A stretch of 64,000 nt of DNA from Wickerhamiella versatilis. Taxonomy: Eukaryota. Where the stretch lies: the NCBI GenBank assembly GCA_030867685.1, contig JAQOWU010000001.1, forward strand, positions 558,001 through 622,000. The letters run 5' to 3'. How positions within the stretch are numbered: the first letter of the stretch is position 1; each line of letters opens with the position of its first letter. The position numbers and the translations under genes are program-made. Positions 3,071 to 26,674 of this stretch are shown piece by piece. The notes beneath the pieces were generated by a model, which worked only from the letters and a program-made list of their open reading frames with translations, did no database searches and was not told the origin of the DNA.

Positions 3071-3132
3071 CACACTTTCATAGATGCACTCTCAGAATAT
3101 CGAGTCGGACAGCTGGTAGAGCTACATACTTC

Positions 3133-3699: not shown

Positions 3700-3843
3700 G
3701 GCGGTTAGTACTAAAATATTTACTTCTGATTGTTTAATCGCTCTGACGATCCATAAAGTACAAATACTAAGTCGCAACTTAGAAAGATTCATCTACTATA
3801 TTAGATGGTACTAGAATTTGTCACTATGTACTGTTGTTCCGTT

Positions 3844-9083: not shown

Positions 9084-10709
9084 CTAGACAGCACCATCGC
9101 CGGTGAAAACGCCCACTATCTTTCCAGTGAGCCTCTTTGCCGAGTTACTGATAGGAGATTTAGTTTCCACTGGATACTCCATCCGGCCTGTCTCGAGATC
9201 CACTTGACTCGCCGGTACCCACATAGGGCTTCGCCTTCTTATATAGAAATAAGCCCGCGCACCACAGTATATGATGACCAGCGCAACAAGTGATACAAAA
9301 TTAGCGAAGAAGTTCTTGGCCGAGGGCTTCTCTCCTAATGGGAATAGAGCAATGTAGAACTGAATGATCACAATTAGGATGCACCACGTGAGCCCGTATA
9401 AAGAGCCCCATATTCCGGACCACCCTCTCCAGGGAAGCTCAGAAAAGCTGCGACCCTGTGCCTTCCATGCTAATCTCATCCGAATATGACAGAAAAAAAT
9501 TGAGCTCCATACCCAGAGCGTGCACAGACTTGTTAGATTTGAGAACCAGCCAAACACATTTGCACCCGTCTCCGAGACGTTTAAATAGCTCAATCCGCCG
9601 CCAAAAACCAAAACAGCCAGGATTCCTGTCCATGGTCGGCCATGTTTATCAGTTTTATTGAGAATTTGCGGTGCGAGCCCCAGCTTTGCCAGTCCTATAA
9701 GCTGGCGGGAGCCACCGTATGCCTGTGCGCAGCCGGAAGATAGTGCGCTCAGTAGAATTATAGCATTCATACCATCACCAAGCCGCCGGATGTTAGACGG
9801 GCCGTCTTTAAATGCTATCACGAAAGGGGACGCGGAGCTACCGCTATCGCTGCCACCACCAAACAATTGTTTGTTATCGGGATCGACGGTTATAGTCACC
9901 ATTAGCGATCCGATGACGTAGAAGAGCCCGAGACGTAGGAAGGCAGAATTAACTGCCGGAGGCACTGAACGACGAGGATTTTTTACCTCTGCCGCTGCCA
10001 CCGCTATGAGCTCCGAGCCGGCAATGGCAAACACACAGGTGGAAAAGACGCTGAGGAGGCCTTTAAATCCATTAGGAAATGCGTTGAAGTTCCAGTAATG
10101 GAATCCGACATGGTTAGCCGCGGATACGTAGATGCAGCCCCCGATAACCACAAATATCCATAGCAGCTTCACACAACTCATTACTGATTCAGCCTCACCA
10201 AACACATTTGATGGACATGCATTGACAAAAACGATATATACCAGGAATATCGTGAGCCACGCCCCAGTGGGTACCTTATCAGTCCAGTAGCTAACCGCCG
10301 TGGTACAGCCCTGTAACTCATTTGCCAGGTTAATTGAGAAGGCGAAGAAGTAGCTGAACCCTAGGGTGACGGCGGCGGCAGGATCAAGGAACTTTTGGCA
10401 CCACTGCGGAAACGGCGATGGGACGGGGTAAAGTATGGATAATTCGCCAGCAGCCACGCATAAGAAGCATACTATTGAAGCAGCTATACAGTATCCGATG
10501 AAGATAGAAGCAGGACCTCCTGTGTGGAGCGATGTGCCGGAGCCGAGCCACAGACCCAATCCGATAGAATTTCCGACGCTAATCCACAGCAGGTGCCGAG
10601 TTTTCAAATTCCGCTTGAGACCTTGATCATTTTCAATAGTTCCTGCGTTAACATCTGGGTCAACCTCTTTTTCTTGGACGATTGCCACGTCCTTTTTTTC
10701 TGACCCCAT
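9084..10709 (-). CDS. Amino acid permease (APC/YAT family), copy 1
   Basis: LKRNLKTRHL, about 12 TM segments, GSELIAVAAAEVKNPR, SASPFVIA. Confidence 0.93.
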   Translation of the reverse strand: MGSEKKDVAIVQEKEVDPDVNAGTIENDQGLKRNLKTRHLLWISVGNSIGLGLWLGSGTSLHTGGPASIFIGYCIAASIVCFLCVAAGELSILYPVPSPFPQWCQKFLDPAAAVTLGFSYFFAFSINLANELQGCTTAVSYWTDKVPTGAWLTIFLVYIVFVNACPSNVFGEAESVMSCVKLLWIFVVIGGCIYVSAANHVGFHYWNFNAFPNGFKGLLSVFSTCVFAIAGSELIAVAAAEVKNPRRSVPPAVNSAFLRLGLFYVIGSLMVTITVDPDNKQLFGGGSDSGSSASPFVIAFKDGPSNIRRLGDGMNAIILLSALSSGCAQAYGGSRQLIGLAKLGLAPQILNKTDKHGRPWTGILAVLVFGGGLSYLNVSETGANVFGWFSNLTSLCTLWVWSSIFFCHIRMRLAWKAQGRSFSELPWRGWSGIWGSLYGLTWCILIVIIQFYIALFPLGEKPSAKNFFANFVSLVALVIIYCGARAYFYIRRRSPMWVPASQVDLETGRMEYPVETKSPISNSAKRLTGKIVGVFTGDGAV

Positions 10710-10909
10710 GGTGCAGATTGAAGCGAATGATAACTACCCTTGCCCATGCGGCTGATAACCGCGTCTTGTTTCACAGAAGGACCTTAAAGCTACCATCTTG
10801 GGATCAATGAAGACTCGAAGATGGATTATGGGGCTAAGCTCAGCCTAGCCGATAATATAGCACCAACTAGTTTGACGAAAATAGCACCGTTTATAAGGAG
10901 CCCAACGAA

Positions 10910-12520
10910 CTAGACTACGCTGTCCCCGCTAAAAAATCCAGCTAATTTACTGGCAAAAGTTTTTATCTTGTCATCATTTTTTGCTTCAAGATCTGGTGGA
11001 TACGCCATGCGACCTGTTTCGAGGTCTACTTTATCGGCCGGTACCCACATTGGGCTTCGAGTCCGCCAATAAAAGTAAATTCTCCCGAAACAATAAATAA
11101 ACACCAAGGCCACTATAGATACGAAGTTAGCAAAGAAATTTTTCGGCGACGGCTTGTCTCCTAGTGGGAATAGAGAAATGTAGAACTGAATGATTACGAT
11201 TAAAATGCACCAGGCAAGCCCATAGTAAGAGCCAAGAATCGTACCCCATCCCTTCCATGGAAGCTCCTTTAAGCTTCGACCCTGAGCCTTCCACGCGGAT
11301 CGCATACGGATGTGGCAAATAAAGATTGAACCCCAGACCCAGAGGGTACACAAGCTCGTCAAATTTGAGAACCAGGTGAACACATTAGCACCTGTCTCAG
11401 ACACATTAAGGTAGCTTAATCCGCCACCAAACACTATAATTGACAATATGCTTGCCCAAGGACGCCCTTGTTTGTCGGTCTTTGTAAATATTTTGGGCGC
11501 CAATCCTAGTTTGGCCATACCAATGAGCTGGCGAGAGCCTCCGTATGCCTGGGCACAAGCTGCAGACAATGCACTTATAAGTATGATAGCATTCATGGCG
11601 TCACCAAGTCGTTGGATATTCGGTTTGTCTTTGAACGCTATCACAAATGGAGAGGCATTATTACCGGTATCTATGGAGCCTCCAAACAATTGCTTGTTAT
11701 TTGGGTCAACCGATATCGTTATCATGAGAGATCCGATAATGTAGAAAAGTCCCAAGCGTAGAAACACTGAATTGACTGTAGGAGGCACTGACCGGCGAGG
11801 GTTCTTCACCTCTGCCGCTGAAATAGCTACGAACTCCGAACCAGCAATAGCAAATATACAGGTTGTAAATACACTCAGTAGGCCCTTGAATCCATTGGTA
11901 AAGGCATCAACATTCCAGTAGTGGAAGCCAATGTGGTTGCTAGCGGACACATAGATACATCCGCCAATCACCACAAAAATCCACATTAATTTCACAGCAC
12001 TCATTATAGACTCTACCTCACCGAATATATTGGAGGGAAATACAGAAATGATAACCACATACACTAGGAAGATGGTCAGCCATGCGCCTGTGGGCACTTT
12101 ATCTGTCCAGTAACTGACAGCCGTGGTACAGCCCTGAAGTTCGTTAGCTAATGTGATTGTGAAGGAGAAAAAATAACTGTACCCTAGGGTAGTCGCAGCA
12201 GCTGGGTCGAGGAACTTTACGCACCATTGAGGGAATGGAGATGGGACGGGATATAGAACTGCTAGTTCACCAGCGGCTAGACATAAGAAACACACAATAG
12301 AGGCAGCTATACAGTATCCAATAAATATCGCAGCGGGGCCACCATTGTGCAAAGAGCTACCTGCTCCAAGCCACAATCCCATTCCTACCGAGTTCCCTAC
12401 GCATATCCATAGAAGATGCCGAGTTTTCATATGGCGTTTTAGACCTTGGTCGTCTTCAACAATACCTGAATCGAAATCCTTTTCTTCGATAACTACCTGT
12501 TGTTTCTTGTCCGGTTCCAT
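10910..12520 (-). CDS. Amino acid permease (APC/YAT family), copy 2 (tandem paralog)
   Basis: Collinear with and highly similar to 9084-10709, e.g. shared LANELQGCTTAVSYWTDKVPTGAWLTIFLVY. Confidence 0.93.
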   Translation of the reverse strand: MEPDKKQQVVIEEKDFDSGIVEDDQGLKRHMKTRHLLWICVGNSVGMGLWLGAGSSLHNGGPAAIFIGYCIAASIVCFLCLAAGELAVLYPVPSPFPQWCVKFLDPAAATTLGYSYFFSFTITLANELQGCTTAVSYWTDKVPTGAWLTIFLVYVVIISVFPSNIFGEVESIMSAVKLMWIFVVIGGCIYVSASNHIGFHYWNVDAFTNGFKGLLSVFTTCIFAIAGSEFVAISAAEVKNPRRSVPPTVNSVFLRLGLFYIIGSLMITISVDPNNKQLFGGSIDTGNNASPFVIAFKDKPNIQRLGDAMNAIILISALSAACAQAYGGSRQLIGMAKLGLAPKIFTKTDKQGRPWASILSIIVFGGGLSYLNVSETGANVFTWFSNLTSLCTLWVWGSIFICHIRMRSAWKAQGRSLKELPWKGWGTILGSYYGLAWCILIVIIQFYISLFPLGDKPSPKNFFANFVSIVALVFIYCFGRIYFYWRTRSPMWVPADKVDLETGRMAYPPDLEAKNDDKIKTFASKLAGFFSGDSVV

Positions 12521-12607: not shown

Positions 12608-12858
12608 CTAGGTTGCATCGGATTAATTTACCACGTAGTCTTAGAAATTCTGTGCCCAGCAATACAGGAAATTTTTATAGCAGGCGCTTTAAAAGTTCGC
12701 CACATTCATAGGCGATGATGATGCGACATCATCCATCACCCTGTTCAGATTTTGGTGCCGTACAATGACTAAAAATGGGCAAAGATAAGCCCTTAGAACC
12801 CGGTAATTTTTTACTTCGAGCCATCCCCCGTGTATTAGTTAATTTCTCCTTGTTAAAT

Positions 12859-14823
12859 ATGAATGCACCAATTCTTGGAAGCGCATGGTACCCGGAGCAA
12901 TGGCCAGAATCTGTATGGGAGAGCGACTTAAAGTGGATGCAGGAAGCCCATGTCAAAGTTTTACGAATTGGCGAATTTGCTTGGAGTTCTATGGAACCTA
13001 AGGAAGGAGAATATGATCTTGACTGGTTGGAAGCAGCGCTGGATGCCGCTGCTCGCTATGGCATGACAGTTGTTTTAGGGACACCAACACCAACTCCTCC
13101 TGTGTGGTTGACGACAAAGTATCCAGATACTTTAAATGTTAACGATCATGGGGTCAGAGCTGAGCATGGTAATCGTCAGCAATTTTCTTTCGCAAGTAGT
13201 CGCTATCGAGAGCTTGCCTATAAAATTGTGCAACAGCTGGCACGCCGGTTTGGCAATCATCCCGCAGTCATTGGTTGGCAAATAGATAACGAAATTTCCG
13301 ATATATCTTTTGATTCCGAGACAAAATCCCAATTCAGAGCTTGGCTGAAGTCACGATATGGCGCAATAGATATTCTGAATGACTGTTGGGCCAACAAGTA
13401 TTGGAGCATGACTTACGATAATTTTGAACAAATACCAGTTCATGAGAGTGATCAAAACCCTGCATTGCTTCTAGATTGGAAAAGATTTGTCACTTATACA
13501 TGGAAATCGTATCTCAATAATCAGATTAGTGCTATTCGGGAAAGTAGTGATCCCCGCCATTTTGTAACCACAAACACAATGGGTTGGTTTACTGGTTTCG
13601 ATGCCTATATTGTACACGAACCTCTTGATATCGCGGCGTGGGATAACTATGTCGAAAATGAAGCATATGACTGGATGGATACTGCCTGCCGCCATGACCT
13701 GACCCGAGGCTTTAAGAATAAAAACTTCTGGGTAATGGAAACTGCACCCGGTTTTGCCAATTGGAAGCCTACTAATGTTGCATTGCGTAAAGGTCTTATG
13801 AGAAACATGGCCTGGCAAGCTATCGCACATGGCTCAGACGCCGTTCTTTATTGGCAGATGCGCAGCGCACCAAATGGCCATGAAACGTACCATGCCACTC
13901 TTCTAGGTGCTGATGGAACCCCAGTTCCGGGTTACTATGAAATCCAGCAATTGGGCGCCGAATTTGGCAAAGCAAGTAGAGCATTAGATGGAACATTTCC
14001 GTGTGGCAAGGTGGCAGTTATACACGACTATGAAAGCCGATGGGCAATCAATTTCCAGAAACATGCTGAGAAATTTGATCCTTTTATTGAAATGAAAGCA
14101 TTTTATACTCCACTAAGATCACAGGCCCAAGCCGTGGATATCATTTCCCCAACCACCGACCTTGCCCCATACAAGCTTGTTGTTGCACCTGCACTGAACA
14201 TACTTTCTGATGAGGTAGCTAGCAAACTTGAAGCATATGTCATGAGTGGCGGGCACTTGGTTCTCGGTCCTCGAAGTGGAATGAAAAATGTTCATAACGG
14301 ACTGCAACCTGCGCGGCAGCCTGGTCCACTAGTTGGTTTGCTTGGTGGAAGAGTAGAGCAATTTTATGCCCTTAATACTGAAGTGCCAGTGAAGGGTGCC
14401 CTAGGGAGCGGCACGGCTAATATCTGGGCAGAGCTTCTGCGAGAATTATTGCCTGACACAAAGGCGGTGCTGCGCTATGGCATGTCAAATGGTTGGCTGG
14501 ATAATCAACCAGCGGTTCTGACAAGACAGGTTGGTAGGGGAAGAATTACTTACGTTGGAGCATGGCTCGATAATGACCTGCTAAGCAGTCTTGTGCGTAC
14601 TTGGCTGCATGATGCGGAAATACGACCATATATTCCACAAGTCCCTAAAGACGTCGAAATTTCTTGCCGTACAGATGGGATTCGCCATATTTTGATCCTT
14701 ATCAGCCACAGCTATGCAACCAGAAGGGTTTGCCTTCCCCAGCCAATGTATTCTATACTTACTGATGAAGAGGAGACCACTGAAATAGTACTGGAGCCAT
14801 TTGAGGTCTTCATCTTGGTGTGA
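12859..14823 (+). CDS. GH42 beta-galactosidase, bacterial type (probable HGT)
   Basis: AWYPEQWP, RIGEFAWSSMEP, WQIDNE (acid/base), FWVMET (nucleophile), AIAHGSDAVLYWQMR, trimerisation domain; probable start is ATG 12859 (an upstream in-frame ATG exists at 12775). Confidence 0.93.
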   Translation: MNAPILGSAWYPEQWPESVWESDLKWMQEAHVKVLRIGEFAWSSMEPKEGEYDLDWLEAALDAAARYGMTVVLGTPTPTPPVWLTTKYPDTLNVNDHGVRAEHGNRQQFSFASSRYRELAYKIVQQLARRFGNHPAVIGWQIDNEISDISFDSETKSQFRAWLKSRYGAIDILNDCWANKYWSMTYDNFEQIPVHESDQNPALLLDWKRFVTYTWKSYLNNQISAIRESSDPRHFVTTNTMGWFTGFDAYIVHEPLDIAAWDNYVENEAYDWMDTACRHDLTRGFKNKNFWVMETAPGFANWKPTNVALRKGLMRNMAWQAIAHGSDAVLYWQMRSAPNGHETYHATLLGADGTPVPGYYEIQQLGAEFGKASRALDGTFPCGKVAVIHDYESRWAINFQKHAEKFDPFIEMKAFYTPLRSQAQAVDIISPTTDLAPYKLVVAPALNILSDEVASKLEAYVMSGGHLVLGPRSGMKNVHNGLQPARQPGPLVGLLGGRVEQFYALNTEVPVKGALGSGTANIWAELLRELLPDTKAVLRYGMSNGWLDNQPAVLTRQVGRGRITYVGAWLDNDLLSSLVRTWLHDAEIRPYIPQVPKDVEISCRTDGIRHILILISHSYATRRVCLPQPMYSILTDEEETTEIVLEPFEVFILV

Positions 14824-14940
14824 TTGATATTACAGAGAATACGGATACCGCTGTTTTTACATTCTGCTTTGGGGTCCTCGAATCTCGAAATGTGTTTTGG
14901 TCACGTGGATGCTATCATGGAGCCATGCTAGCAACAAGTA

Positions 14941-15498
14941 CAGCTTAATTTGACATTATAAAATTAGGATTATTTGTGGTGATCTTAAGTCCAAACATTA
15001 AGAATGATAAGCTCCCTTGCCCAGATAGCTGATAACGGCGACCTGTTTCACAGAGGACCCTACTCCCAGACGAGATGTCTAGAGACTGGATATCTTGCAA
15101 TATGTTCCCATCAGTATTTATTTCCGTGATGAAGCCAGCCTTCTACCCACGACAACCACTTAACAATTGAAAATGGCGATCAATCGATCGATATGCTCTA
15201 TCTTCTTCCTTTTCCTCTCTTCCTAGCCTAATTGATGGTAACATAAGTCGAGTACAGAGCGTTTCAGGGGATTTGTGGCGCTACACATTCTCGTCACGGG
15301 GCTGTTATTGGCAGAGCCATGATTAAGCATGTATATAGGGACTGAAACCAACGGTGCTGCAATTATTAGGGTGCTAAGTCTAGAGGTAATGGCGTTTAAT
15401 GAAGTACATTTACAATAAAGAAGTAAGGAATTTTAGCAGAACTTTGAGAAGGATATGCAGCTTAATTTAACATTATAAAATTAGGATTACGTATGGTG
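14941..15498 (+). repeat. Imperfect 41-bp direct repeats at 14941-14981 and 15458-15498
   Basis: cagcttaatttgacattataaaattaggattatttgtggtg vs cagcttaatttaacattataaaattaggattacgtatggtg. Confidence 0.85.
15002..15062 (+). repeat. Diverged copy of the permease-1 upstream region (10725-10786)
   Basis: gaatgataa..cccttgccca....gctgataac.gcg...tgtttcacaga(a)ggacc.ta is shared by both sites. Confidence 0.8.
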
Positions 15499-15715
15499 TT
15501 CCACCGATCAAGTCTAATGTAGAGAAAAGCATCAAAAGCGAACACTCTAGAGTCCGCTACAGTTTTAGAGTATGCGGTGGTAATGGTTACACCACATGCT
15601 TATCGATCGGTGGGTCGGGTTAGGGTTGATAAATTGGCGGGACCACCGCGCGGTGTAGCACTTGGTGGGGCGGGGTGTGTATATAATAGGTCGCGTCCTG
15701 TCGCGACTTAGCAAC

Positions 15716-18700
15716 ATGTCTGACCCCAAGTATCGGCGTGACCTGTACAAGTGCCGGTCAGAGGATGACCATATTGAGAAAGAGGGCGACGAGTACGTGT
15801 GTGGATTTGAAGGATGTGGGAAGCGGTTCTCGTCAAAAAGCCTCAACATTGCGCGGCACCATGTGCTCAGTTCCCATATGGGGGGCACGAGGTACCAGTG
15901 CACACAGTGCGACAACTCGTATGCGACCCCCAGCGCTTTGGAGAAGCATATGAAGGGTGTCCACGACAACAATCGAATCATGTGCGACGAGTGCAACCGC
16001 AGCGTTGCGGACTTAGCCGAGTTGGAACGCCACAAAAAGCGTAACCACTCCGGACCAAGTGAGCCCAAGTACCGGCGGAAGGGCCACTACGGAACGCAGC
16101 CAGAGGATGATCGCATTGAAAAGTTGGAGACAGGGTGGTACAAGTGCCAGCAGTGTCCTCAAAGGTTTTCGCCGAAAGACCTCCATCATGCCCGGAAACA
16201 TGTAGTTCGCCATGGGCCTGGCGAGCCTCGGAACGTACAGGAGGAGGAGGTTGTCCCTCCACCGTCCGAACCGTCAGTCTGGAGAGGCGGACCTCTCTCC
16301 TCATCACGCAATACGAATTCCAGAAGATCCGCTGGTGGAGGAGCGGCACCTGGAACCAGTGCCCATCGGTTCAATTGGGCAGCTTGGTTAAATCGTGGTG
16401 GACCAGACGGACCAAGCCCAAGCGGAGCAGGAGTGCCAAGCCTAAGCGGACTAGGAATGCCAGGTGGACCAGTGTCAGGTGGACCAGTGTCAGGTGGACC
16501 AGTGTCAGGAGTAACAAGCGAACCGGGCGGACTAGGAATGTCAAGCCCAGGCGAACCAGGAATTTCAAGTGGACCGGTGACAGGAGTGCCAAGTCCAAGC
16601 AGACTAGAAATGTCAAGTGGATCAGTGTCAAGCGGTATAGGAATGTCAAGTGGACCAGGCGAACCAGGAGTGTCAAGCCCAAGCGGGCTAGTGTCAAGCG
16701 AACCGGGAAGCTCTAAACTACCCGAAACATTTGGTTTCTATTTAGAAGACCAACATCTTGCGTTCAAAGACTCCCAGTACCATTGCTCATTCGACAATTG
16801 CACGAGGAAGTTCTCGCTCGCTGCTCTGTCCAAGGCCCGGGAGCATGTCAAGAGCACGCACCTCATACATCGTACATTCCAATGCATCGAGTGTGACCAG
16901 TCTTTCGATGGTATCGGCAGCTTTGAGCGGCACATGACTACGGTGCATCTGGGAAAAAAGTTTGCCTGTACCCAGTGCGATAAGAAGTATGCCGACAAGG
17001 GCGGGCTCGACCGGCATGTCCGCCGTGATCATCTCGGGACTGAGGGGCGAAAGTACCAGCGCAAGGGCCCGTTCAAGACCCAGCCGGAGGACGCGTACCT
17101 TGAAAAGCCCGGAGAAAAGTACCTGTGCACCTACGACGGATGCACGCGCCAGTTCTCCAAAAAGGACCTGCACAAGGCCCGCAACCATGTGGAGTTTATC
17201 CATCTCGGTCGCGGGAAGTTCCAGTGTCCTGTGGATGGATGTGATAAGGAGTACGTTGATAAGGCTGGCCTTGACACGCATACAAAAGTTGTACACCAGC
17301 ATCGAGAGTTTCAGTGCAGCGAATGCGACAGAAAATTCGGATATCAAAGCTCACTGGACCACCATATCAAGCTGGACCATAAAGGAGAGTTTTTACAATG
17401 CACCGAGTGCCCTAATACTTACAGGACGGTTAGTGGGTTGCAGAAGCATATATTCTCTGCCCACACCGACCAGAAGGCACATTGCTCGCAGTGCCCGCAA
17501 GAGTTTGCGGATTTGGGCTCATTAGGTAGGCATTTTAAGATAGCCCATACCTCCGACAAGGTCTATGCGCAGTGCCAATGCGGTAGGGAGTTCCAGACGG
17601 TGAGGGACCTGAACAAGCATGTGGAGCGCAAGAAGGAGTCGGCGCCTGACCAAGAACATGGCCGTCTTAATTTGGAGGACCGCTTGAGCGTCAAGGCGGA
17701 GGCGTTCAGTTCGGAAACCAAGGTCATCACTGCCAAAGGCAATGCGAAGTATGTGTGGGAGCTAGCAGAAGGCGAGGCTATCCAGTGCGGCAAAGGGAAA
17801 ATCGGCCATGTGAAAGAGGTACGGGGCTATGAGGGGAAAGGATATAGCGTGCTGCAAGTCACTAACCATCTTCTTGAGCCCTTGCATCCAGTGGACCTCG
17901 AGCGGTCGGACAGCGAGCTCCAGCTGCTATTTGGCAAGGCCGGGTTTGAAGGGGTACTTGAGAAGCCAGAAAGTGTGGAGGAAGGCCAGTCGTGGGGCGC
18001 CATGCTGCAGGTCGCGCCGACGATGGGCCGGCCAACAAGTGGGTGGTTCCGGCAGTTGTGTGAGGATAACGGGTTTAGTGGTGACCAGGTGTATGACGCG
18101 GCGTGGATCCTAGGCCTGTGGATAGGTGATGGTGCGTGGGACCGTCTCGATATTTGTTGCAATGCAGTTGATACGCAGGAAATCGAGCGTATTGTGGAGG
18201 CCGGCAAACGGCTAGGCTTCAAACCGGTTCTCAGGGAAAAGATTGTCACGGATAACCCCAAGCGAGAAGAGCCCTATGTGTCTTGTGTAAATGTGGCGTT
18301 AACTACCGAGCCAGCATGTGCTCCGAACCCGATGTGGGATGTGATCATGCAGTCGGGGGCCTGTGGCATCACTGATGGTGACTGGAAAGTGTTCCCCTGG
18401 CAATTGATTTATGACGAGGTTGAAATTGTGACATGGGTTATGGCAGGATTGATTGATAGTGATGGATATGTACACGACTACAGTTGGTTGCAGGCGAGTA
18501 TCAAGACTATTTATCCCAAGTTACGCGACAACATTCTAGAGGCTGGCCGTCTGCTGGGATGGGGGTGGTCTACGTCGACAGTTCCAGAAGGCCGGAAGAT
18601 GATTTGGGGTAGGGAAGCTAATTGCAAGGAATCCTACACTGTCACTTTCACCGGCGACGACCTGTCGAAAACTCTGTCCAAGTGCAACAATGCTCACAAG

Positions 18701-19066
18701 ACGCGCGACCTGCGTCACGAGAAGTCTAGCCCGCGCAGAAAGTTCTTCATGATTTTGCCGCTCCTACGTTCCATAGTTGCATATGTGGTCGTGCTCGAGG
18801 ATGAGACTCACGTGATGCTCGAGAACGGGCTAGTCGTCCCAGTTGTGCACGACCCGGGAAAGGGGATACGTATCATAGAAGAAGATAGAGAGTACGAAAG
18901 AATGCTACTCGAGATCTATGGGCAGTGCGACGAGGAGGAGCGTACTGAGAGGAACGCCCAGCTGAGGCCGCTCAAACGTCAAGGAGTGGAGCGAACGGAA
19001 CGGGCCCTGAATGAGAGGCGAGAGATTGAGGCATCGCGGTCCGAGAATGGCAATCAATTTGCGTGA
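15716..19066 (+). CDS. C2H2 zinc-finger array fused to a VDE/HO-like Hint-LAGLIDADG endonuclease (splicing-deficient intein derivative)
   Basis: 12 complete plus 1 degenerate C2H2 fingers; AFSSETKVITAKG Hint-like start at 17702; ILGLWIGDG (about 18107-18133) and MAGLIDSDG (about 18440-18466); MLENGLVVPV intein-C-like end (about 18844). Confidence 0.9.
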   Translation: MSDPKYRRDLYKCRSEDDHIEKEGDEYVCGFEGCGKRFSSKSLNIARHHVLSSHMGGTRYQCTQCDNSYATPSALEKHMKGVHDNNRIMCDECNRSVADLAELERHKKRNHSGPSEPKYRRKGHYGTQPEDDRIEKLETGWYKCQQCPQRFSPKDLHHARKHVVRHGPGEPRNVQEEEVVPPPSEPSVWRGGPLSSSRNTNSRRSAGGGAAPGTSAHRFNWAAWLNRGGPDGPSPSGAGVPSLSGLGMPGGPVSGGPVSGGPVSGVTSEPGGLGMSSPGEPGISSGPVTGVPSPSRLEMSSGSVSSGIGMSSGPGEPGVSSPSGLVSSEPGSSKLPETFGFYLEDQHLAFKDSQYHCSFDNCTRKFSLAALSKAREHVKSTHLIHRTFQCIECDQSFDGIGSFERHMTTVHLGKKFACTQCDKKYADKGGLDRHVRRDHLGTEGRKYQRKGPFKTQPEDAYLEKPGEKYLCTYDGCTRQFSKKDLHKARNHVEFIHLGRGKFQCPVDGCDKEYVDKAGLDTHTKVVHQHREFQCSECDRKFGYQSSLDHHIKLDHKGEFLQCTECPNTYRTVSGLQKHIFSAHTDQKAHCSQCPQEFADLGSLGRHFKIAHTSDKVYAQCQCGREFQTVRDLNKHVERKKESAPDQEHGRLNLEDRLSVKAEAFSSETKVITAKGNAKYVWELAEGEAIQCGKGKIGHVKEVRGYEGKGYSVLQVTNHLLEPLHPVDLERSDSELQLLFGKAGFEGVLEKPESVEEGQSWGAMLQVAPTMGRPTSGWFRQLCEDNGFSGDQVYDAAWILGLWIGDGAWDRLDICCNAVDTQEIERIVEAGKRLGFKPVLREKIVTDNPKREEPYVSCVNVALTTEPACAPNPMWDVIMQSGACGITDGDWKVFPWQLIYDEVEIVTWVMAGLIDSDGYVHDYSWLQASIKTIYPKLRDNILEAGRLLGWGWSTSTVPEGRKMIWGREANCKESYTVTFTGDDLSKTLSKCNNAHKTRDLRHEKSSPRRKFFMILPLLRSIVAYVVVLEDETHVMLENGLVVPVVHDPGKGIRIIEEDREYERMLLEIYGQCDEEERTERNAQLRPLKRQGVERTERALNERREIEASRSENGNQFA
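16461..16509 (+). repeat. 15-bp tandem repeat x3 within a degenerate Gly/Pro/Ser minisatellite linker (about 16395-16715)
   Basis: caggtggaccagtgt x3 encoding GGPVS; recurring gtgtcaag, ggaccag and cgaaccagg units nearby. Confidence 0.85.
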
Positions 19067-19463
19067 CGGACGGAATAGAGCTTGGAAATAGGTAACTCCG
19101 CATTCTCTACCAGCTTGACCAAGAGAGGCGTGTAGAGTAGAGACCAGTGTCCAGCTGGGGTCTCTTCAACTTCAGGGAGTGGGGCAGGCGGAACGCACCC
19201 TAAACAGGGCTGCCACAGTCCTGATCAACCAGCATATCAATTTATCTTAGGTTTCTTTCTTTAAATTATCCCTTAGTAGTAATAGTTATATTGTGTTTCT
19301 AACATACATTTTATGTAACTGGCCTTTGTGGCCCAGTGGAAGGTGCCAATTTGTGGCCGTCTTGTGTAATAAACTTATGTAATACACATAATTGATTACA
19401 TTTGATCTGGTTCATGACTGGCTAATTCCGGATATTCTGAGTCAATGCTTAGTAATCGTCGAC

Positions 19464-19544
19464 GTCAAGGTGGCCGAGTGGTTAAGGCGCTAGCTTTAGG
19501 CGCTAGTATCTTCGGATTCGCGAGTTCGAATCTCGTCCTTGACA
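19464..19544 (+). tRNA. tRNA-Leu(TAG), intronless
   Basis: GTCAAGG/CCTTGAC acceptor stem, TGGCCGAGTGG, CTAGC-TT TAG GC-GCTAG, long variable arm, GTTCGAATC, poly-T downstream. Confidence 0.95.
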
Positions 19545-19820
19545 TTATTATTTTTTTCTCGAAATGTTCTTATTGTCCAAATTTAGAAAGCAAATTTAAA
19601 AAGCCTTACCAGTGCTGTGAATTGACTTTCGCACTGAACTTTGTAGCCATGGGCCAGGTCAAAGGCCAACTGGGCCTACTTCTATTTTTGGGTCAGCTGC
19701 ACGGTACAGTACAAAGACAATCAGACATATAAGGCTAGATGGAATATCAATTTACGAAGTGCTAGATAAATAAATAAATTACATGCCTCTGTGTCGTGCG
19801 GTGCTGCCACCAGCCAGCGC

Positions 19821-20752
19821 CTAGACATTTTCTGGCGGTGCCGCCATTTCGTAGTTTTCCGCGGCTGCCGAGTTCTCGGCGCAGAACCGCATTTGCAGGA
19901 CCATAAATGCGGCACCCACGAGGTCGCAGCTGATTGTGAAGGCCCCCGATATGATGAACGAACACTTTTGGATGTGCAGGTCCGAGGCAAGACAGAGCAT
20001 GCCATGGAGGACACATGCCACGGCAGTAACTATTCCCAGGGGCGAGGAGAGCCGGAGCTTGAGGTAGGCCGGGAACGTCAGGGTGGTGGCTACTAGCAAT
20101 GCCGATACCAGCAGCTGCGCGCGGTACACAGCTCATAGACTCACCGGCCAGGTGTCCATTTTAAACGGCAGAACAGGGACTAAGAATATGCAGGTCAGAA
20201 TAGTGCCGATAAGACGAGCAGGGCAAGGCATGGGGACTTCACAAACCTGTGTACGGTATCCTTCAAGGACCCAGAGGCGATGCCGACTAATAGCGAAAAG
20301 AGAAGAACAATAAAAGAAACCATAGATGAGCCCATGATTGGAAACACAACTATGTTGGAATTTGGGTTCTCAGAAACGAATTTCGTCACGTCATTACTGT
20401 CGGCTATATTCCTGTTTAGACACATCTTATTGAAGAAGTAGGCAATGGCCAGTAGCAGGGCATTGCATACCCATATTCCTGCAGCGCGATGCACGCCAAA
20501 GTAGTCCTTGGGCCTGTATATATGGTGGACTACCAGCGGGGGCAGCGATAAGATCAGGATAAACCACTTGAGCCTCAGGGCAAACTCTGCGGCTTCAGGG
20601 ATGACTGCAGAGCCGATGCCTACGATGGTCACATATAGCGGTTGGAAGAAAGAGGTAACGGTTGCCTTCTCAGCGTATGTGGGCCTGGGCTGTTCCCACC
20701 CATACACTAGACTTACTAACTTCAGATGCTTTGGGCTTCTGCTGCGTGCCAT
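19821..20752 (-). pseudogene. Disrupted multi-TM membrane protein gene (about 310 aa if repaired)
   Basis: Hydrophobic ORF from ATG 20752 continues after a frameshift near 20215 (LIGTILTCIFLVPVLPF...), then past an in-frame TGA at 20135-20133 into the 19821-20129 ORF. Confidence 0.55.
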
Positions 20753-21119
20753 CGCCCAGCTGTGCGGTGCAAGGCAATCATACCTGCTAGAATAAAAATA
20801 TCAACTCAAGATTGGTGGATACATAAATAAGTAAGTTATTCAGTGCGGTGCGGAACGACGGTTTGCGGCGAGTGGCGATAAGAGTACAATGGGCTACTTG
20901 ACGTTCATGGCGAGGCAGGGGGTCTGAGACTGACGAGGCATGCGGTCTGGCTTCAGAAGCCTTGCGCATACCCAAGGCATGCTTTACCAGGAATCTTAGG
21001 CTTCTATCCGTGGGGACCTCCCTGGTTGGCACGGGTCCATACGGGTCGGGATCATTACGATACAGGCATGCATGCATGCATGTACATATATTGTGGGGTT
21101 GTCACCTAACTAATTCGGA

Positions 21120-21908
21120 ATGACCGGTAGAGTTGAAAATAAGATTGCATTGGTTACTGGCGGGTCCAAGGGCCTTGGCAAGGCGGTGGCGGAGTTGTTG
21201 GCCGAGGAGGGTGCCACGGTGTACGTGACGGACGTTGACGAGACGGAAGGCGTCAGGACGGTGGACGCGATGGAGCAGCACGGCCGCGATGTGTACTTCC
21301 TCCGGCACAATACGGCGGATGAGGGCGATTGGAAGAGAGTTTTTGAGGAGATCCGGGACCGGTACGGCCGGCTCGACATCATGGTCAACAACGCGGGCAT
21401 CGGCGTTTTCCAGAGCGTCGAGTCGGCGAGCCTCGAGGATTGGCGTAAGCTGCTCAGTGTCAACCTCGACGGCGTGTTTCTCGGCACGCGCTATGCCATT
21501 GAGCTCATGAAGGCCCAGGGGAGGGGCGGCAGCATCATCAACCTGAGCTCGATCGAGGGTCTGGTGGGCGACCCGAACCTCGCCGCGTACTGCGCAAGCA
21601 AAGGAGGCGTGAGACTGTTCAGCAAGTCGGCTGCGCTGGACGTCGCCAAGCTCGGGATCCGGGTCAACACGGTTCACCCGGGCTATATCGAGACCCCGAT
21701 GGTTTTGAACGCATGCAAGGCACTTGAGCCACACTGCGAGGACGCGCGGCAGACCGAGGCGTACCAGAGGCTCGTCGGGCAGCACCCGGTGGGCCATCTC
21801 GGTGAGCCTGCTGATATTGCATATGGCGTGCTGTACCTGGCCTCTGACGAGTCGAAGTTTGTCACGGGCAGCGAGCTCGTCATCGATGGCGGCTACACGG
21901 CACAGTGA
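21120..21908 (+). CDS. Classical SDR, bacterial 3-beta-HSD/cyclopentanol-dehydrogenase-like (probable HGT)
   Basis: TGGSKGLG, NNAG, SSIEG, YCASK, IRVNTVHPG, VTGSELVIDGGYTAQ; visibly GC-rich third positions. Confidence 0.88.
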   Translation: MTGRVENKIALVTGGSKGLGKAVAELLAEEGATVYVTDVDETEGVRTVDAMEQHGRDVYFLRHNTADEGDWKRVFEEIRDRYGRLDIMVNNAGIGVFQSVESASLEDWRKLLSVNLDGVFLGTRYAIELMKAQGRGGSIINLSSIEGLVGDPNLAAYCASKGGVRLFSKSAALDVAKLGIRVNTVHPGYIETPMVLNACKALEPHCEDARQTEAYQRLVGQHPVGHLGEPADIAYGVLYLASDESKFVTGSELVIDGGYTAQ

Positions 21909-22017: not shown

Positions 22018-23460
22018 TTATACATTTAAGTCCGTCGCGGTAGGCCTGGAAATGGTAAATTCACCTTCTCCCGTGGAGGTAGGAAATAGTAGCGTATCAG
22101 TATCAAAAGTGTAAGATCCAGTGGCAGATGCGGTAAGGGACGAGAAGTACTTGGACCTCGCTGTGAACAACGAGGTGGCCACGGTGGTGCTGTAGCGCCA
22201 GTCGAGCTGCGTCGAGTTGTAGTGCGAGGCATGGGTCGCCGACGGAATGCTCTTGGAAATGGGTTCTATGGAAACTTCCGTGACGTTGTGCTTTGCGTAC
22301 GCCAAACCGACCTCCTTGCTCTCCAGGTCGAACACGGCATACAGCCTGCGCAGCGCATTGTCACCGAGAATGACCGATTCCAGCTCTCCCTCCTCAACCC
22401 CAAGCATACAGTACGTCACATCATCATCATAATCATCCTCATACTCCACCACAAAGTCCTCCAGGGGCACCTCGAAATTGAATCCGCTCACGTTGAATCC
22501 GATTGACCCCGATACGTTTGAGCACCCGTCGTACGACATCACGTACCCCTCAACTTCGGAGTCATATACGGCACCGAGCGTCTTGATAATGGGCTTGAGG
22601 AATTCAACGGGCAGAATAGTTAACGTCGTGCCACTGTCAAGCAGGAACGGCCAGCTAAGGTTGCTTATGATTTGCGAGTGGTTGTGGCCGTTTGAGAGGG
22701 AAATGCCGTTGACCATTACGGTGGTCCGGGTCGCCTCGCTGTCCATTACAGGGATGAACGGCAGCAGTGTGAGGTTGCCGTCGAACTTGGCGGTGTCCAC
22801 CGCACCGAACAGCAGCTGCCCGCTCGCGTAGTCGTCGTTCAGCCAGAGCGAGTACGCCACGCGATCAATCGCACCCGACTCCTTCAGCTGGTAAGGGATC
22901 GAGGTATACTCATAATCACCAATTTCTACTGTGGTTTCCAAAGACTCTAAACCAATGCCAAACACATTTATATCGATCTCTTCAGAGTCATTCACCACAC
23001 CGAAGCGGCTATTTTTCAGGGTGGCCCCGCCAATGGAAATGGTATCCTGACCAAAGTATCCCATAGCTTCGCCTTTGCCGTACACTATTTCGAACAGGCC
23101 CGTGGTGTTGGCCTTGAATGTCTTGGAATCATCAGGATCGAATATGCCGTAGCAGGTATCCTGGGTCTCTGGATCCTCCTCATCATTCGAGGTACAATCA
23201 TACTCCTCGCCCGAAAAAACCCACAGATCACTTGAGCCGGTGTCAATCAAAGCAGTTACATTTTGAGCTGGGGTACCGATCGACAGAACTGCCAGATAGG
23301 CCACCTGCTCCGCACTGTTGTAGGCGGTCAGGTTGACATCCTTAGTTTCCCGCTTGTTCAAGCCGGAGGAGTGTTGCCTGAGGGCCGAGCGGCTAAAAGG
23401 GATACTGACCTGGGCCGCCGCAAGGGACGCAAGTAGAGAGCAGAGGGGGAGCGATACCAT
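22018..23460 (-). CDS. Yapsin-like aspartic protease with Ser/Thr tail
   Basis: Signal peptide, KR, DTGSSDLWV, LLDSGTTLT, ILGDNALR; no clear hydrophobic GPI signal. Confidence 0.92.
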   Translation of the reverse strand: MVSLPLCSLLASLAAAQVSIPFSRSALRQHSSGLNKRETKDVNLTAYNSAEQVAYLAVLSIGTPAQNVTALIDTGSSDLWVFSGEEYDCTSNDEEDPETQDTCYGIFDPDDSKTFKANTTGLFEIVYGKGEAMGYFGQDTISIGGATLKNSRFGVVNDSEEIDINVFGIGLESLETTVEIGDYEYTSIPYQLKESGAIDRVAYSLWLNDDYASGQLLFGAVDTAKFDGNLTLLPFIPVMDSEATRTTVMVNGISLSNGHNHSQIISNLSWPFLLDSGTTLTILPVEFLKPIIKTLGAVYDSEVEGYVMSYDGCSNVSGSIGFNVSGFNFEVPLEDFVVEYEDDYDDDVTYCMLGVEEGELESVILGDNALRRLYAVFDLESKEVGLAYAKHNVTEVSIEPISKSIPSATHASHYNSTQLDWRYSTTVATSLFTARSKYFSSLTASATGSYTFDTDTLLFPTSTGEGEFTISRPTATDLNV

Positions 23461-24250: not shown

Positions 24251-26674
24251 CTAGAATAGCGCGACAAATGCCACGGCACCTAAGGTGTAAATCCCGAAAT
24301 GCTGTGGTTTAGCTGCCGCATTGTCAAATGGGATTGAGGACCTGCCAGATGCACCAGGCGAAGTGCTTTCTGGTTGAACAGCACCACCAGAAGCCTCGCT
24401 AGCCGTAGATACAACACCACCAGTGGCGCTTGAAACCTTGGCCCTAGGATTTTCACTCGAAGCCATAGGTGAGGGCTTTGTATACTCATTAGTGGCAGGA
24501 GACGAAAATGCTTCACTTGTGGCATCACAACTTGTAATCGTCAGCGTGGTAGGAGCCGTTACCGTATATGTAGATGAGCCGTGTGTGAATGTGGTCGGCG
24601 ACGGGCAATAAGTTGTATAGTAGGTAGTCTCTGCTGTTGTAGTCGCATACTCACTAGTGACAGAAGGTGAAAGAGCGTCACTTGTGGTATCACAACTTGT
24701 GATCGTCAGCGTGGTAGGAGCCGTTACCGTATATGTAGATGAGCCGTGTGTGAATGTGGTCGGCGACGGGCAATAAGTTGTATAGTAGGTAAACTCTGCT
24801 GTTGTGGTAGCATAAGAACCCGACACAACGGAGACGGAGCCCAGAGTGGTGCCACTGGAACTCGCCGATCTAGATGATACCAGCTTAGGAGGAACAGTGC
24901 TCGTACTATTCAAGCCAGAACTAGTGGGGGTAACACTGGAAATAGACATCGTGCCAGTGGATGACCTGGTGGAGATAGCAGAGCCTGTTGAGGATGACAC
25001 AATTGGAGTAGGAGATGAACTGTTAGAGATGGTCGACGACTCAGTCGAGGGAACAGAGACTGGCGATGATCGACTGGAATGGGCGGAATGTGTTCTACTA
25101 GAGATGGAGAGACTAGAAGATAGCGATGACACCGGGCTCGCAACGGACAGAGAAGAGCTGCTGGTATTCTTGCGTGGGACGGAAGAAGATGAAGTCATAG
25201 TCAAGGAAGCAGAAGACGATTTAGTGGAGGCCATCGAGGATGGCTTGATCGAAGCAGACGATGAGCTACTTGAAATGGTCGACGACGTAGTGGAAGGACC
25301 AGAAGAAGAGAAGTCAGTGGAGGCAGTAGGCACAGATGACGACGACTTGGTAGTGACAGAGGACGATTTATTAGATGATGTCGAGGATGGCTTAATCGAA
25401 GCAGACGATGAACTACTAGAAATGGTCGACGACGTAGTGGAAGGACCAGAAGAAGAGAAGTCAGTGGAGGCAGTAGGCACAGATGACGACGACTTGGTAG
25501 TGACAGAGGACGATTTACTAGATGATGTCGAGGATGGCTTGATCGAAGCAGACGATGAACTACTTGAAATGGTCGACGACGTAGTTGAGGGACCAGAAGA
25601 AGAGAAGTCAGTGGAGGCAGTAGGCACAGATGACGACGACTTGGTAGTGACAGAGGACGATTTATTAGATGATGTCGAGGATGGCTTAATCGAAGCAGAC
25701 GATGAACTACTAGAAATGGTCGACGACGTAGTGGAAGGACCAGAAGAAGAGAAGTCAGTGGAGGCAGTAGGCACAGATGACGACGACTTGGTAGAGGTGA
25801 CAGAGGACGATGTACTAGATGATGTCGAGGATGGCTTGGGCAAAGTTGAAGATGAACTACTAGAAATGGTCGACGACGTAGTAGATGAAGTGGAAGATAA
25901 ATCACTTGAACAGGTGGATGATATACTGGATGGAACAGACGACCATGTGCTTGTCCGAGAAGTGAGGCTCGCTTCAGAAGAGGTCATCGAAGTTGTAGAT
26001 GTCGAAGAAAATGTCGAGGACGATGAGCTACCATCGCATTTTACTGGCCAGCAATAACTAGACGCATCAGTCTGGGAGTTTCCATTGTTATCAACATTGT
26101 TGCAACCAGTTATGTAGTCGTAGGACTTGGCGTATTTCCACGAGTTACATTGGCTAGCTGCTGAGTTTGCAGTAAGTGAACACCAATCAAACTGAATCTG
26201 GAAATTTGGCATGCAAGCTGTGCTTCCACTAACATCCGCATTTATTTCTACTGATGCATGCCACTTCTTGGGGTTATCGATGATGTGAACATCTTCATTC
26301 AGTGAATAAAGAACAACTGTACTGTCTTGAGAGGACTGCAGTCCAATGATCTTCAACTCATCCAAAGCAGAAATATCCATATTGTCGTCCGCTTCAAACG
26401 ATATGGTCACGTTATAAGTGCTGCCACTAACAGGCGTAACTTCTGTAATGGAGATAGAGGCATTTGGCATGTTAGCCTGGCTCGCGTGAAAGCCAAAATT
26501 ATAATTTGGACATTTTTCATATATAGAGCAGCTATCACTGCGAGTTTCCAACGGCTTAGCCTCGTTAAAAAGCAACTCATCTGCTACTCTGACATTGGTG
26601 TGGGTGTCTGCACCAGCAGACACAGCATGGATGGTTGCTAAGAGACTGATGAATACCTCACGAAGTTTGATCAT
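24251..26674 (-). CDS. Flo11-type GPI-anchored adhesin
   Basis: Signal peptide, N-terminal Flo11-like domain (YNVTISF, LDELKIIGL, CMPNFQIQFDW), Ser/Thr repeats, YTTYCP repeats, hydrophobic GPI tail. Confidence 0.85.
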   Translation of the reverse strand: MIKLREVFISLLATIHAVSAGADTHTNVRVADELLFNEAKPLETRSDSCSIYEKCPNYNFGFHASQANMPNASISITEVTPVSGSTYNVTISFEADDNMDISALDELKIIGLQSSQDSTVVLYSLNEDVHIIDNPKKWHASVEINADVSGSTACMPNFQIQFDWCSLTANSAASQCNSWKYAKSYDYITGCNNVDNNGNSQTDASSYCWPVKCDGSSSSSTFSSTSTTSMTSSEASLTSRTSTWSSVPSSISSTCSSDLSSTSSTTSSTISSSSSSTLPKPSSTSSSTSSSVTSTKSSSSVPTASTDFSSSGPSTTSSTISSSSSSASIKPSSTSSNKSSSVTTKSSSSVPTASTDFSSSGPSTTSSTISSSSSSASIKPSSTSSSKSSSVTTKSSSSVPTASTDFSSSGPSTTSSTISSSSSSASIKPSSTSSNKSSSVTTKSSSSVPTASTDFSSSGPSTTSSTISSSSSSASIKPSSMASTKSSSASLTMTSSSSVPRKNTSSSSLSVASPVSSLSSSLSISSRTHSAHSSRSSPVSVPSTESSTISNSSSPTPIVSSSTGSAISTRSSTGTMSISSVTPTSSGLNSTSTVPPKLVSSRSASSSGTTLGSVSVVSGSYATTTAEFTYYTTYCPSPTTFTHGSSTYTVTAPTTLTITSCDTTSDALSPSVTSEYATTTAETTYYTTYCPSPTTFTHGSSTYTVTAPTTLTITSCDATSEAFSSPATNEYTKPSPMASSENPRAKVSSATGGVVSTASEASGGAVQPESTSPGASGRSSIPFDNAAAKPQHFGIYTLGAVAFVALF
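24525..24815 (-). repeat. Two copies (165-bp spacing) of the YTTYCPSPTTFTHGSSTYTVTAPTTLTITSC cell-wall repeat
   Basis: Near-identical DNA copies. Confidence 0.9.
25233..25885 (-). repeat. 147-bp (49-aa) coding tandem repeat, about 4.5 copies
   Basis: Anchor agaagaagagaagtcagtgg at 25301, 25448, 25595 and 25742. Confidence 0.93.

Follow-up and report, generated by a model that had tools for sequence, protein, structure and literature searches.

An open reading frame joining N-terminal C2H2 zinc fingers to a non-splicing, VDE-type intein nuclease module in a budding yeast

Within a 64,000-nucleotide (nt) stretch of Wickerhamiella versatilis DNA (contig JAQOWU010000001.1, positions 558,001 to 622,000 of the forward strand; the window, in what follows), an intact open reading frame (ORF) of 1116 amino acids (aa) occupies positions 15716-19066 on the plus strand, exactly as an earlier note on this DNA had placed it. 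In this ORF, named ZFHE here, a first block of zinc fingers (A), a repetitive linker, a second finger block (B), a module resembling the VMA1 intein VDE/PI-SceI (aa 663-1046), and a charged tail follow one another. ZFHE is almost certainly a genuine fused gene and, judged from its sequence, probably encodes a catalytically active nuclease. We lean towards reading it as a resident, probably active, site-specific nuclease that is addressed by its fingers, parallel to HO/WHO. By analogy of layout, the combination of a zinc-finger array with a non-splicing intein nuclease resembles engineered genome-editing nucleases. The parts of the gene are as follows.

15716..19066, + strand: whole ORF ZFHE, 1116 aa plus stop
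15716..16219, + strand: finger block A, aa 1-168, fingers F1-F4
16220..16747, + strand: low-complexity Gly/Pro/Ser/Val linker, aa 169-344 (176 aa), with imperfect 15-nt-based repeats
16748..17665, + strand: finger block B, aa 345-650, fingers F5-F13
17702..17875, + strand: N-terminal Hint half, aa 663-720; Ala663 is intein position 1, QVTxH at 714-718
17876..18067, + strand: variable region, aa 721-784, between the N-terminal Hint half and the endonuclease domain
18068..18715, + strand: LAGLIDADG endonuclease domain, aa 785-1000, from Pfam Hom_end and the PI-SceI alignment
18098..18133, + strand: LAGLIDADG motif 1, AAWILGLWIGDG, aa 795-806; Asp805 aligns with PI-SceI Asp218
18440..18466, + strand: LAGLIDADG motif 2, MAGLIDSDG, aa 909-917; Asp916 aligns with PI-SceI Asp326
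18716..18853, + strand: C-terminal Hint half, aa 1001-1046; ends VVPVVHD then Pro, opposite VVVHN then Cys in VDE
18854..19063, + strand: charged tail, aa 1047-1116, predicted helical, with one Cys and no finger

The identity of the module is indicated by profiles, alignments and a predicted structure. Pfam Hom_end (PF05204) matches aa 894-999 with 59.4 bits (cutoff 21.1; E 4.4e-16), and Hom_end is also found in P0003, P0004 and P0005, three of the related proteins described below. The profile scan proposed in the earlier note was thus significant for Hom_end, as it was for zf-C2H2; LAGLIDADG_3 stayed below its cutoff (15.8 against 22.5 bits) and Hom_end_hint gave no match, so that the evidence for the Hint halves is structural. 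When ZFHE was compared with PDB sequences using HMMER, five PI-SceI/VMA1 entries came out on top (E 1e-22 to 5.1e-22), aligning aa 795-1041 (up to 1069) with PI-SceI 208-451. All of the VDE-like motifs quoted earlier from the translation, and their VDE counterparts, are visible in this alignment at E 1e-22. The C-terminal Hint half was delimited from the HMMER alignment to 9cop_A and from a VIA-align superposition that runs through PI-SceI residue 454.

A structure model of aa 655-1116, folded with a 15-row alignment, has a mean predicted local distance difference test (pLDDT) score of 62.7 and a predicted template modelling score of 0.54, with a confident nuclease core. The ten top-ranked Foldseek chains are all PI-SceI (E 1.2e-22 to 4e-18). 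VIA-align places model residues 9-389 (aa 663-1043) on PI-SceI 1-454 with Z 26.8, a root-mean-square deviation of 5.1 over 315 residues and 28% identity, a span that in the model takes in both Hint halves plus the nuclease. The VDE-collinear block of about 380 aa in the earlier note is therefore exact: nt 17702 corresponds to Ala663 (intein residue 1) and nt 18844 lies in aa 1043. The short charged tail described there likewise corresponds to aa 1047-1116. Prp8 mini-inteins, which hold only Hint, match at Z 9.2-9.3 over model residues 9-389, and I-DmoI and I-Tsp061I match the endonuclease domain at Z 15-17 over model residues 133-353. In the ESM Atlas, aa 655-1116 retrieved only LAGLIDADG-type clusters, from viruses, archaea and bacteria, with scores of 0.87-0.93. 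The variable region, which lies where we take the DNA-recognition region of PI-SceI to be, is poorly predicted (pLDDT <50 at model residues 54-119), and the short members of the family carry longer insertions here. Neither VMA1 nor any other conserved host domain was recognised in the ORF by Pfam.

A single ZFHE chain carries two LAGLIDADG helices, each with a terminal acidic residue. Across the five family members, D794-G806 is invariant except at position 803 and A910-G917 is invariant throughout. Asp805, Asp916, Lys891, Lys995 and Thr931, which correspond to D218, D326, K301, K403 and T341 of PI-SceI in the HMMER alignment to PI-SceI chains, are the same in all five at overall identities of 29-92%, bearing out the earlier observation that both catalytic Asp and both Lys equivalents are retained. 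Taken together, these comparisons show a complete VDE-type fold without splicing residues. Ala663 stands opposite Cys1 of the VMA1 intein in the HMMER alignment, in a weak stretch of it, and VIA-align sets model residue 9 on PI-SceI residue 1; this position is Ala in 5/5 members, with no Cys/Ser/Thr nucleophile, and A663, F664, Q714, V715, T716 and H718 are invariant in the family. At the other end, the residues are His-Asp-Pro in the window protein (P0001) and P0003, and His-Ser-Pro in P0002, with neither a His-Asn nor the His-Asp pair in P0004 or P0005. Relative to PI-SceI, Cys1 has become Ala, Asn454 has become Asp, and the +1 Cys has become Pro.

These residues bear directly on whether ZFHE could be a splicing-competent intein in a zinc-finger host, releasing a VDE-like nuclease and a ligated finger protein. 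The module is a complete intein from position 1 to its C-terminal strands and has other protein sequence on both sides, as such a reading expects, but the alanine at position 1 in every member, the lack of a C-terminal His-Asn in any of them, and a +1 position that is Pro or in a Thr/Asp context, not Cys/Ser/Thr, make it extremely improbable. Nor did an intein-less host homologue of the finger protein appear among shorter proteins, where the search for free-standing relatives of the finger array gave 18 matches, all of them generic C2H2 arrays, from insects, TFIIIA and the like, with identities of 20-34%. Splicing was rejected on Ala663 in 5/5 and the absence of a terminal His-Asn followed by Cys/Ser/Thr.

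The N-terminal part bears out the claim of 12-13 C2H2 fingers: a regular expression finds 12 regular fingers, and a 13th, atypical finger (F13) lies directly N-terminal of the Hint domain.

aa 29-54, 62-83, 90-111, 144-166, 357-382, 390-411: first six of the 12 C2H2 fingers (regular expression)
aa 418-439, 471-496, 504-529, 534-555, 562-583, 590-611: last six of the 12 C2H2 fingers (regular expression)
17573..17659, + strand: F13, atypical CxC...H...H finger, aa 620-648

Pfam scores are 97.7 bits for zf-C2H2 (cutoff 25.2) and 100.9 bits for zf-C2H2_4, and the best PDB matches of the fingers are ZNF568, TFIIIA and CTCF. F13 reads C620-x-C622...H635...H648; its Cys and His residues are invariant in 5/5 family members, within a set of invariant residues comprising Q619, C620, C622, G623, E625, F626, H635, K639 and H648. 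Block A shares 99% identity with P0002 and 72% with P0003; the short forms P0004 and P0005 lack it, and their fingers align with the C-terminal part of block B. F1 and F4, the long-spacer fingers of block A, each have a PKY..QPED..IEK-type motif ahead of them. F1, F4, F5 and F8 share a 14-residue spacer and a conserved terminal AR.HV...H; the QPED..(I/L)EK motif precedes F4 and F8, and a more degenerate ED..(I/L) precedes F1 and F5. From such motifs the array looks like a set of duplicated three-finger units. Among the three long forms, helix positions -1, 2, 3 and 6 are the same in 5/13 fingers (F2, F7, F8, F12, F13), with one difference in five fingers and at least two in three.

The linker between the blocks contains repeats of families D1-D3 and D5 and is only 65% (P0002) and 24% (P0003) identical to its counterparts, with insertions and deletions. 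Its length varies among strains: alignments of relatives' contigs jump over 243 nt and 111 nt of it, and those of RNA reads step back by 51 nt. The coding repeats at 16404-16700 encode GPVSG-like units whose copy number is strain-variable.

The stretch 14900-19700 was found in 20 of 24 listed sequencing runs, from 12 studies, covering metagenomes of food and food fermentation, sediment metagenomes, and isolates of organism A. Four runs (X24, X21, X15 and X20) were mapped on window positions 13500-21500. The RNA runs, X24 and X21, are from organism A, which is a close relative rather than the same strain because most reads are 95-99% alike. RNA reads were present in 13/13 bins from 15636 to 19106 and in none of the 2 intergenic bins at 14835-15368. 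Summed over both orientations, depth over ZFHE was about 1-6x (X24) and 1-13x (X21), with 20-800x over neighbouring genes, and neither X24 nor X21 showed a splice joint within the ORF. We read this as transcription of the whole ORF at a low level, which does not in itself prove a single mRNA; separate transcripts for the two halves, raised in the earlier note as an alternative to a fusion, were not what the RNA sequencing (RNA-seq) showed, with the whole ORF covered and no splice joint. Some 115 polyA RNA-seq reads from a relative align solely over the 42 nt at 19315-19356, flanked at one end by sequence like a template-switch oligonucleotide and at the other by unrelated sequence; the 42 nt are probably a short segment shared with a transcript from elsewhere.

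An assembly chimera was also rejected, as fingers and nuclease occur in one ORF in P0002-P0005 and in the near-identical P0027. A contig from X15 (organism A) spans 16526-21500 with 37 differences, so that the junction of block B with the nuclease and the downstream flank are contiguous there. P0027 is one residue off the window protein, apart from an extension from a GTG start. P0002 and P0027 are extended by 13 residues at the N-terminus, which takes their start to an in-frame GTG at 15677; this GTG overlaps a TATA-like box, and we read the extension as an artefact of prokaryote-style gene calling.

15680..15686, + strand: TATA-like box TATATAA, 30 nt upstream of the ZFHE ATG, read directly from the sequence

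A word-indexed search of 5.8 billion protein clusters with aa 655-1116, in which 7997 candidates were scored, recovered four relatives of ZFHE. In each of them, fingers at the N-terminus precede the nuclease, and the two short forms have about five fingers.

P0002: 90% identity, 1096 aa
P0003: 67% identity, 1142 aa
P0004: 35% identity, 784 aa
P0005: 33% identity, 779 aa

The exact window protein is absent from the collection searched, and none of the nine cluster members has an NCBI or UniRef record. Searched exhaustively with phmmer, 1.84 billion representatives yielded 23 matches at E <=1e-3, of which 7 were at <=1e-10 and 2 at <=1e-30. The best match outside the family is an HO-like protein of 583 aa from Tetrapisispora (Henningerozyma) blattae (E 2.1e-22). 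Further matches are VMA1 inteins, including those of Linderina and Coemansia, a VDE-type intein in an Ariadne/IBR protein, inteins of helicase, DnaB and terminase proteins, and the WHO proteins P0013 (T. globosa, E 1.3e-6) and P0017 (L. nothofagi, E 3.6e-5). A scan of JGI metagenomes with the family alignment returned 164 pattern matches, of which one (L001) passed tblastn; it was not accepted as a family member because its 26% match covers the finger region only (query residues 34-635).

Two groups of matches are of interest in their own right. P0014, a 972-aa protein from an ENA record, carries a VDE-type intein (Hom_end_hint plus Hom_end) within an Ariadne/IBR-type RING-between-RING E3 ligase, which we take to be an unusual host for such an intein. 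P0009, P0010 and P0159 (NCBI) are VDE-type VMA1 inteins from Kickxellomycotina (Linderina macrospora and Coemansia spp.), fungi that are not budding yeasts, and they cluster with the remaining VMA1 inteins in the tree.

The nuclease-region tree was built with 21 rows from 39 relevant proteins, omitting cluster mates (P0027, P0028, P0030-P0035, and P0010, for which the longer P0159 was used), the fragment P0029, and the weak or partial matches P0015, P0016, P0019, P0021, P0022 and P0025. The ZFHE family forms one clade with support of 100/98, in which the long and short forms are sister groups, and this clade, the VMA1 inteins, the Ariadne intein, the HO-like protein and the WHO proteins split from four helicase-type inteins at 100/99. 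Placement of ZFHE relative to HO plus WHO and the VMA1 inteins has support of 70/20, and approximately unbiased (AU) tests rejected neither ZFHE with HO/WHO (p 0.41) nor ZFHE with the VMA1 inteins (p 0.17). The phylogeny suggested by the earlier note against VDE, HO and WHO thus gave ZFHE its own clade in the fungal VDE/HO/WHO group and left the order among the groups at low support.

The earlier note had also proposed an independent fusion of opposite order. The order stands, with N-terminal fingers of the classical C2H2 type, and independence from HO/WHO finds no support in the tree or the AU tests; since these decide neither grouping, the case for it rests on architecture. The architectural grounds are a different finger type, at the opposite end, and the keeping of the C-terminal Hint strands. 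The family profile reaches only to positions 180-212 of 261 in the WHO rows and to at least 256 in ZFHE, P0009, P0010, P0159 and the T. blattae protein, so that ZFHE, the VMA1-intein rows and the T. blattae protein keep these strands.

The host appears to be a budding yeast distant from Saccharomycetaceae, because the best named matches of the Sac1 protein encoded in the window are only 48-51% identical (Wickerhamiella, Trichomonascus and Starmerella), the nearest, at 51%, being in Wickerhamiella and Trichomonascus. Sac1 identities in other relatives are 99%, 78% and about 52%. The identities of the C-terminal part of ZFHE (90%, 67% and 33-35%) run in the same order, although the records are not linked to the same genomes, and this parallel, which is suggestive only, is consistent with family members that span a deep divergence.

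Divergence between the close alleles P0001 and P0002 is patchy, with identities of 99% in block A, 100% in the N-terminal Hint half, 92% in block B and 85% in the nuclease domain. The 72 substitutions counted outside the low-complexity linker are concentrated in two patches.

16901..16963, + strand: fast-diverging patch 1, aa 396-416, the F6 recognition helix and the following linker
18464..18652, + strand: fast-diverging patch 2, aa 917-979, predicted beta-strands of the second LAGLIDADG subdomain

In patch 1, 10/21 residues differ, against 62/919 elsewhere outside the linker (Fisher p 6.7e-7), and in patch 2, whose strands lie at model residues 263-325, 20/63 differ, against 52/877 (Fisher p 3.8e-9); these p-values overstate the case because the patches were defined post hoc from the alignment. 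In other LAGLIDADG enzymes such strands form the DNA-contacting sheet. In the bin 18306-18572 the depth of organism B's contigs falls to 0.79, in keeping with a patch whose likeness to the window is below 80%. Most likely, to judge from these comparisons, predicted DNA-contacting surfaces of ZFHE are changing quickly between close relatives.

Rapid change at such surfaces is also what would be expected if ZFHE were an active selfish, WHO-like homing element of new organisation. Its nuclease would then cut alleles or sites that lack ZFHE or are unlike it, repair would copy in the gene or a linked resistant segment, and fingers and sheet would be caught in an arms race. The concentration of P0001/P0002 differences in F6 and the strands of subdomain 2, next to a nearly unchanged block A and N-terminal Hint half, agrees with this, and the nearest relatives, VMA1 inteins and WHO, are homing elements. 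The family has very few members, none of them in the named proteomes of the collection searched. An arms race of WHO nucleases with the FBA1 site is reported in a section of a preprint (10.64898/2026.08.13.744650).

Homing is also compatible with the flank upstream of the gene. ZFHE lies between a GH42 (glycoside hydrolase family 42) beta-galactosidase upstream and tRNA-Leu(tag) downstream, and these neighbours accord with the claim that the flanks are not VMA1. Another contig from X15 matches the window at 15002-16408 and runs on for about 11.6 kb of sequence unlike it; a contig of organism B (X20) has the same loose end at 15002, and left of that point the unlike sequence is common to both runs. 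The sole GH42 match in the contigs of organism A, 82% alike, lies on a separate 35.7-kb contig, and the two relatives are alike in having GH42 off the contig. Synteny therefore breaks at about 15002, 714 nt upstream of the ATG, since the contig is unlike the window there and GH42 lies elsewhere; a structural rearrangement ends at this point. The region upstream of ZFHE also holds two copies of a 44-nt direct repeat.

14941..15501, + strand: upstream region with two 44-nt direct-repeat copies (14941-14984 and 15458-15501); synteny break at about 15002

The copies are 89% alike, 517 nt apart, and occur nowhere else in the window (0 chance matches expected); they could be a regulatory element or a rearrangement scar.

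Against homing stand several observations that leave it unlikely. The window holds one copy of ZFHE, with no pseudogene or second copy in a tblastn search of the protein against the 64 kb, and apart from the 44-nt repeat it has no WHO-like flanking repeats or duplicated fragment of a neighbouring gene around the ORF. The block in common with the relative runs from 15002 to beyond 21500, giving no compact element boundary, and downstream synteny is kept on the single contig that covers 16526-21500. All five members are intact, with the residues aligned to the active site conserved, and no empty-site allele was seen in the two contig runs (X15 and X20). Intact members, a single copy without debris in 64 kb, and a syntenic downstream flank are the grounds on which we tentatively favour a resident or domesticated gene over an actively homing one.

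A further alternative is that the nuclease is dead or irrelevant and that ZFHE is a DNA-binding regulator, in which LAGLIDADG and Hint serve only for binding or as a scaffold and the fingers do the main work, as in bacterial WhiA. WhiA chains are among the structural matches (Z 12.4-13.5), 13 fingers with best PDB matches to ZNF568, TFIIIA and CTCF are typical of regulators, and RNA-seq expression is low and constitutive-looking. The recruitment of LAGLIDADG folds as transcription factors has a precedent in sections of PMC7282813. A binding-only module would not be expected to keep the equivalents of the PI-SceI Asp/Asp, Lys/Lys and Thr341 invariant in 5/5 members down to about 30% identity, and we regard this alternative as quite improbable.

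Several points weigh against a resident, finger-addressed, active nuclease. The synteny break upstream of the ATG, and the clustering of substitutions in a finger helix and in nuclease strands, fit a selfish element or genetic conflict as well as they fit a domesticated gene. Linkers between fingers are 6-8 residues long and none is TGEKP, and many fingers have Gly/Ala/Ser at helix positions +2 and +3; on both counts it is uncertain that the array reads specific bases. The missing Hom_end_hint match has been mentioned, and the model is only moderately confident, with 158/462 residues at pLDDT <50. PI-SceI D229 is replaced by Asn816 in the long forms and is Asp in the short forms. Finally, the catalytic roles of D218, D326, K301, K403, T341 and D229 in PI-SceI are ones that we presume.

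If ZFHE is a resident, finger-addressed nuclease, its monomeric LAGLIDADG domain would cut both strands of one long, asymmetric site, using Asp805/Asp916 with Lys891/Lys995. By analogy with megaTALs, the fingers, and perhaps the Hint remnant, would add affinity and position the enzyme beside the cut site. As to its origin, a VDE-like intein most likely became fixed in a C2H2 gene, close to the 3' end, and lost its splicing residues, in which case the 70-aa tail would be the leftover C-extein. The gene would since have been inherited vertically as a resident of a small yeast clade, like HO. Such a 3'-end origin would mirror the model for HO and WHO, in which, according to part of PMC7282813, a zinc-finger gene received an intein close to its 5' end.

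It is conceivable, though fairly unlikely when taken as a whole, that in ZFHE a VDE-type intein was domesticated a second time, independently and in a yeast lineage distant from Saccharomycetaceae, as a catalytically active nuclease guided by zinc fingers, and that it either makes a programmed double-strand break at one host locus, for mating-type switching or another rearrangement, or polices selfish DNA. F6 and the second half of the nuclease would then have been retuned between sibling lineages as the target changed. No MAT-type domain was found in the 27 neighbouring ORFs scanned with Pfam (26 of at least 200 aa and a 184-aa ORF at 20195-20752).

The genes around ZFHE are those of an ordinary budding yeast, in long, intron-free ORFs that are tightly packed across the window: yapsin-like proteases, GH72/Gas, two amino-acid permeases, Flo11, acid phosphatase, Sac1, Rsc4, Doa1, thiolase and dynein. 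The GH42 gene is a separate observation. This is mainly a prokaryotic family, and the gene may have been horizontally acquired. A cluster of cell-surface and transport genes, comprising two tandem amino-acid permeases, two yapsin-like aspartyl proteases and a Flo11-domain adhesin, adjoins housekeeping genes around the locus. For five ORFs, 265-1105 aa long, Pfam gives no family at E <=1e-5.

12775-14823, + strand: GH42 beta-galactosidase (Glyco_hydro_42, E 2.4e-117, plus trimerisation domain)
9084-12520, 4921-6036, 22018-23460 and 24251-26674, all - strand: the permeases, yapsin-like proteases and Flo11-domain adhesin
2968-4644 (- strand), 44698-47407 and 60136-63456 (- strand): the five ORFs with no Pfam family

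ZFHE would show that fusions between zinc fingers and decaying intein nucleases arose, or persisted, more widely than thought, and it offers a new test case for the domestication of homing nucleases. If active, it would be a natural precedent for array-addressed meganucleases, and its allelic variants may show how specificity is retuned. It may also be a programmed-break nuclease, of which literature searches surfaced none for this yeast clade. Were the independent domestication to hold true, ZFHE would be nature's own version of the megaTAL and zinc-finger-nuclease design.

With regard to known systems, HO and WHO are given as the only intein/LAGLIDADG-zinc-finger fusions in sections of PMC7282813 and of the preprint 10.64898/2026.08.13.744650, and the latter, dated August 2026, states there that the LAGLIDADG-plus-zinc-finger organisation occurs only in these two. 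The earlier note was not aware of any described family of this architecture, and in agreement with it the full-text literature searched yielded no account of a C2H2-LAGLIDADG or C2H2-intein protein (supplements apart; those of PMC7282813 may list more intein-like genes). What is new in ZFHE is that the theme of HO and WHO recurs in reverse order and in a distant host, with a finger array that is of another type and much longer.

HO, the mating-type switching nuclease of Saccharomycetaceae, and ZFHE are alike as free-standing nuclear genes without exteins, in which a non-splicing, VDE-type Hint and LAGLIDADG module is joined to a zinc-binding DNA-recognition domain, and both belong to the same clade of fungal Hom_end nucleases (100/99). 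HO has a C-terminal CxxC (Ash1/GATA-like) zinc finger with 3-5 CxxC motifs, and HO and WHO are without intein motif G, as described in part of PMC7282813. ZFHE, in contrast, has 12-13 N-terminal, classical C2H2 fingers split by the 176-aa linker, a fingerless tail, and a host distant from Saccharomycetaceae. WHO shares with ZFHE a non-splicing, intein-derived LAGLIDADG nuclease, a zinc finger, and fast diversification of the nuclease. WHO genes, homing elements of Torulaspora and Lachancea, form clusters with pseudogenes downstream of FBA1, with a duplicated FBA1 3' fragment (sections of PMC7282813), whereas ZFHE is a lone gene between GH42 and tRNA-Leu, with zinc fingers of a different position and type. 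With VDE/PI-SceI, ZFHE has in common the whole-length fold (Z 26.8), both LAGLIDADG motifs, and the equivalents of D218, D326, K301, K403 and T341. It differs in lying outside VMA1, in its replaced splicing residues, in the added finger array, and in the divergent, low-confidence stretch between the N-terminal Hint half and the nuclease. In logic and order ZFHE parallels the engineered megaTAL, in which an array on the N-terminus of a LAGLIDADG meganuclease raises cleavage by addressing it, according to part of PMC3936731. Both have a modular DNA-binding array, a linker, and then the N-terminus of a monomeric LAGLIDADG meganuclease, although in ZFHE the addressing is inferred. Compared with megaTALs and zinc-finger nucleases, ZFHE is natural, uses C2H2 fingers instead of transcription activator-like effector (TALE) repeats, and carries an intein remnant in place of FokI or I-AniI.

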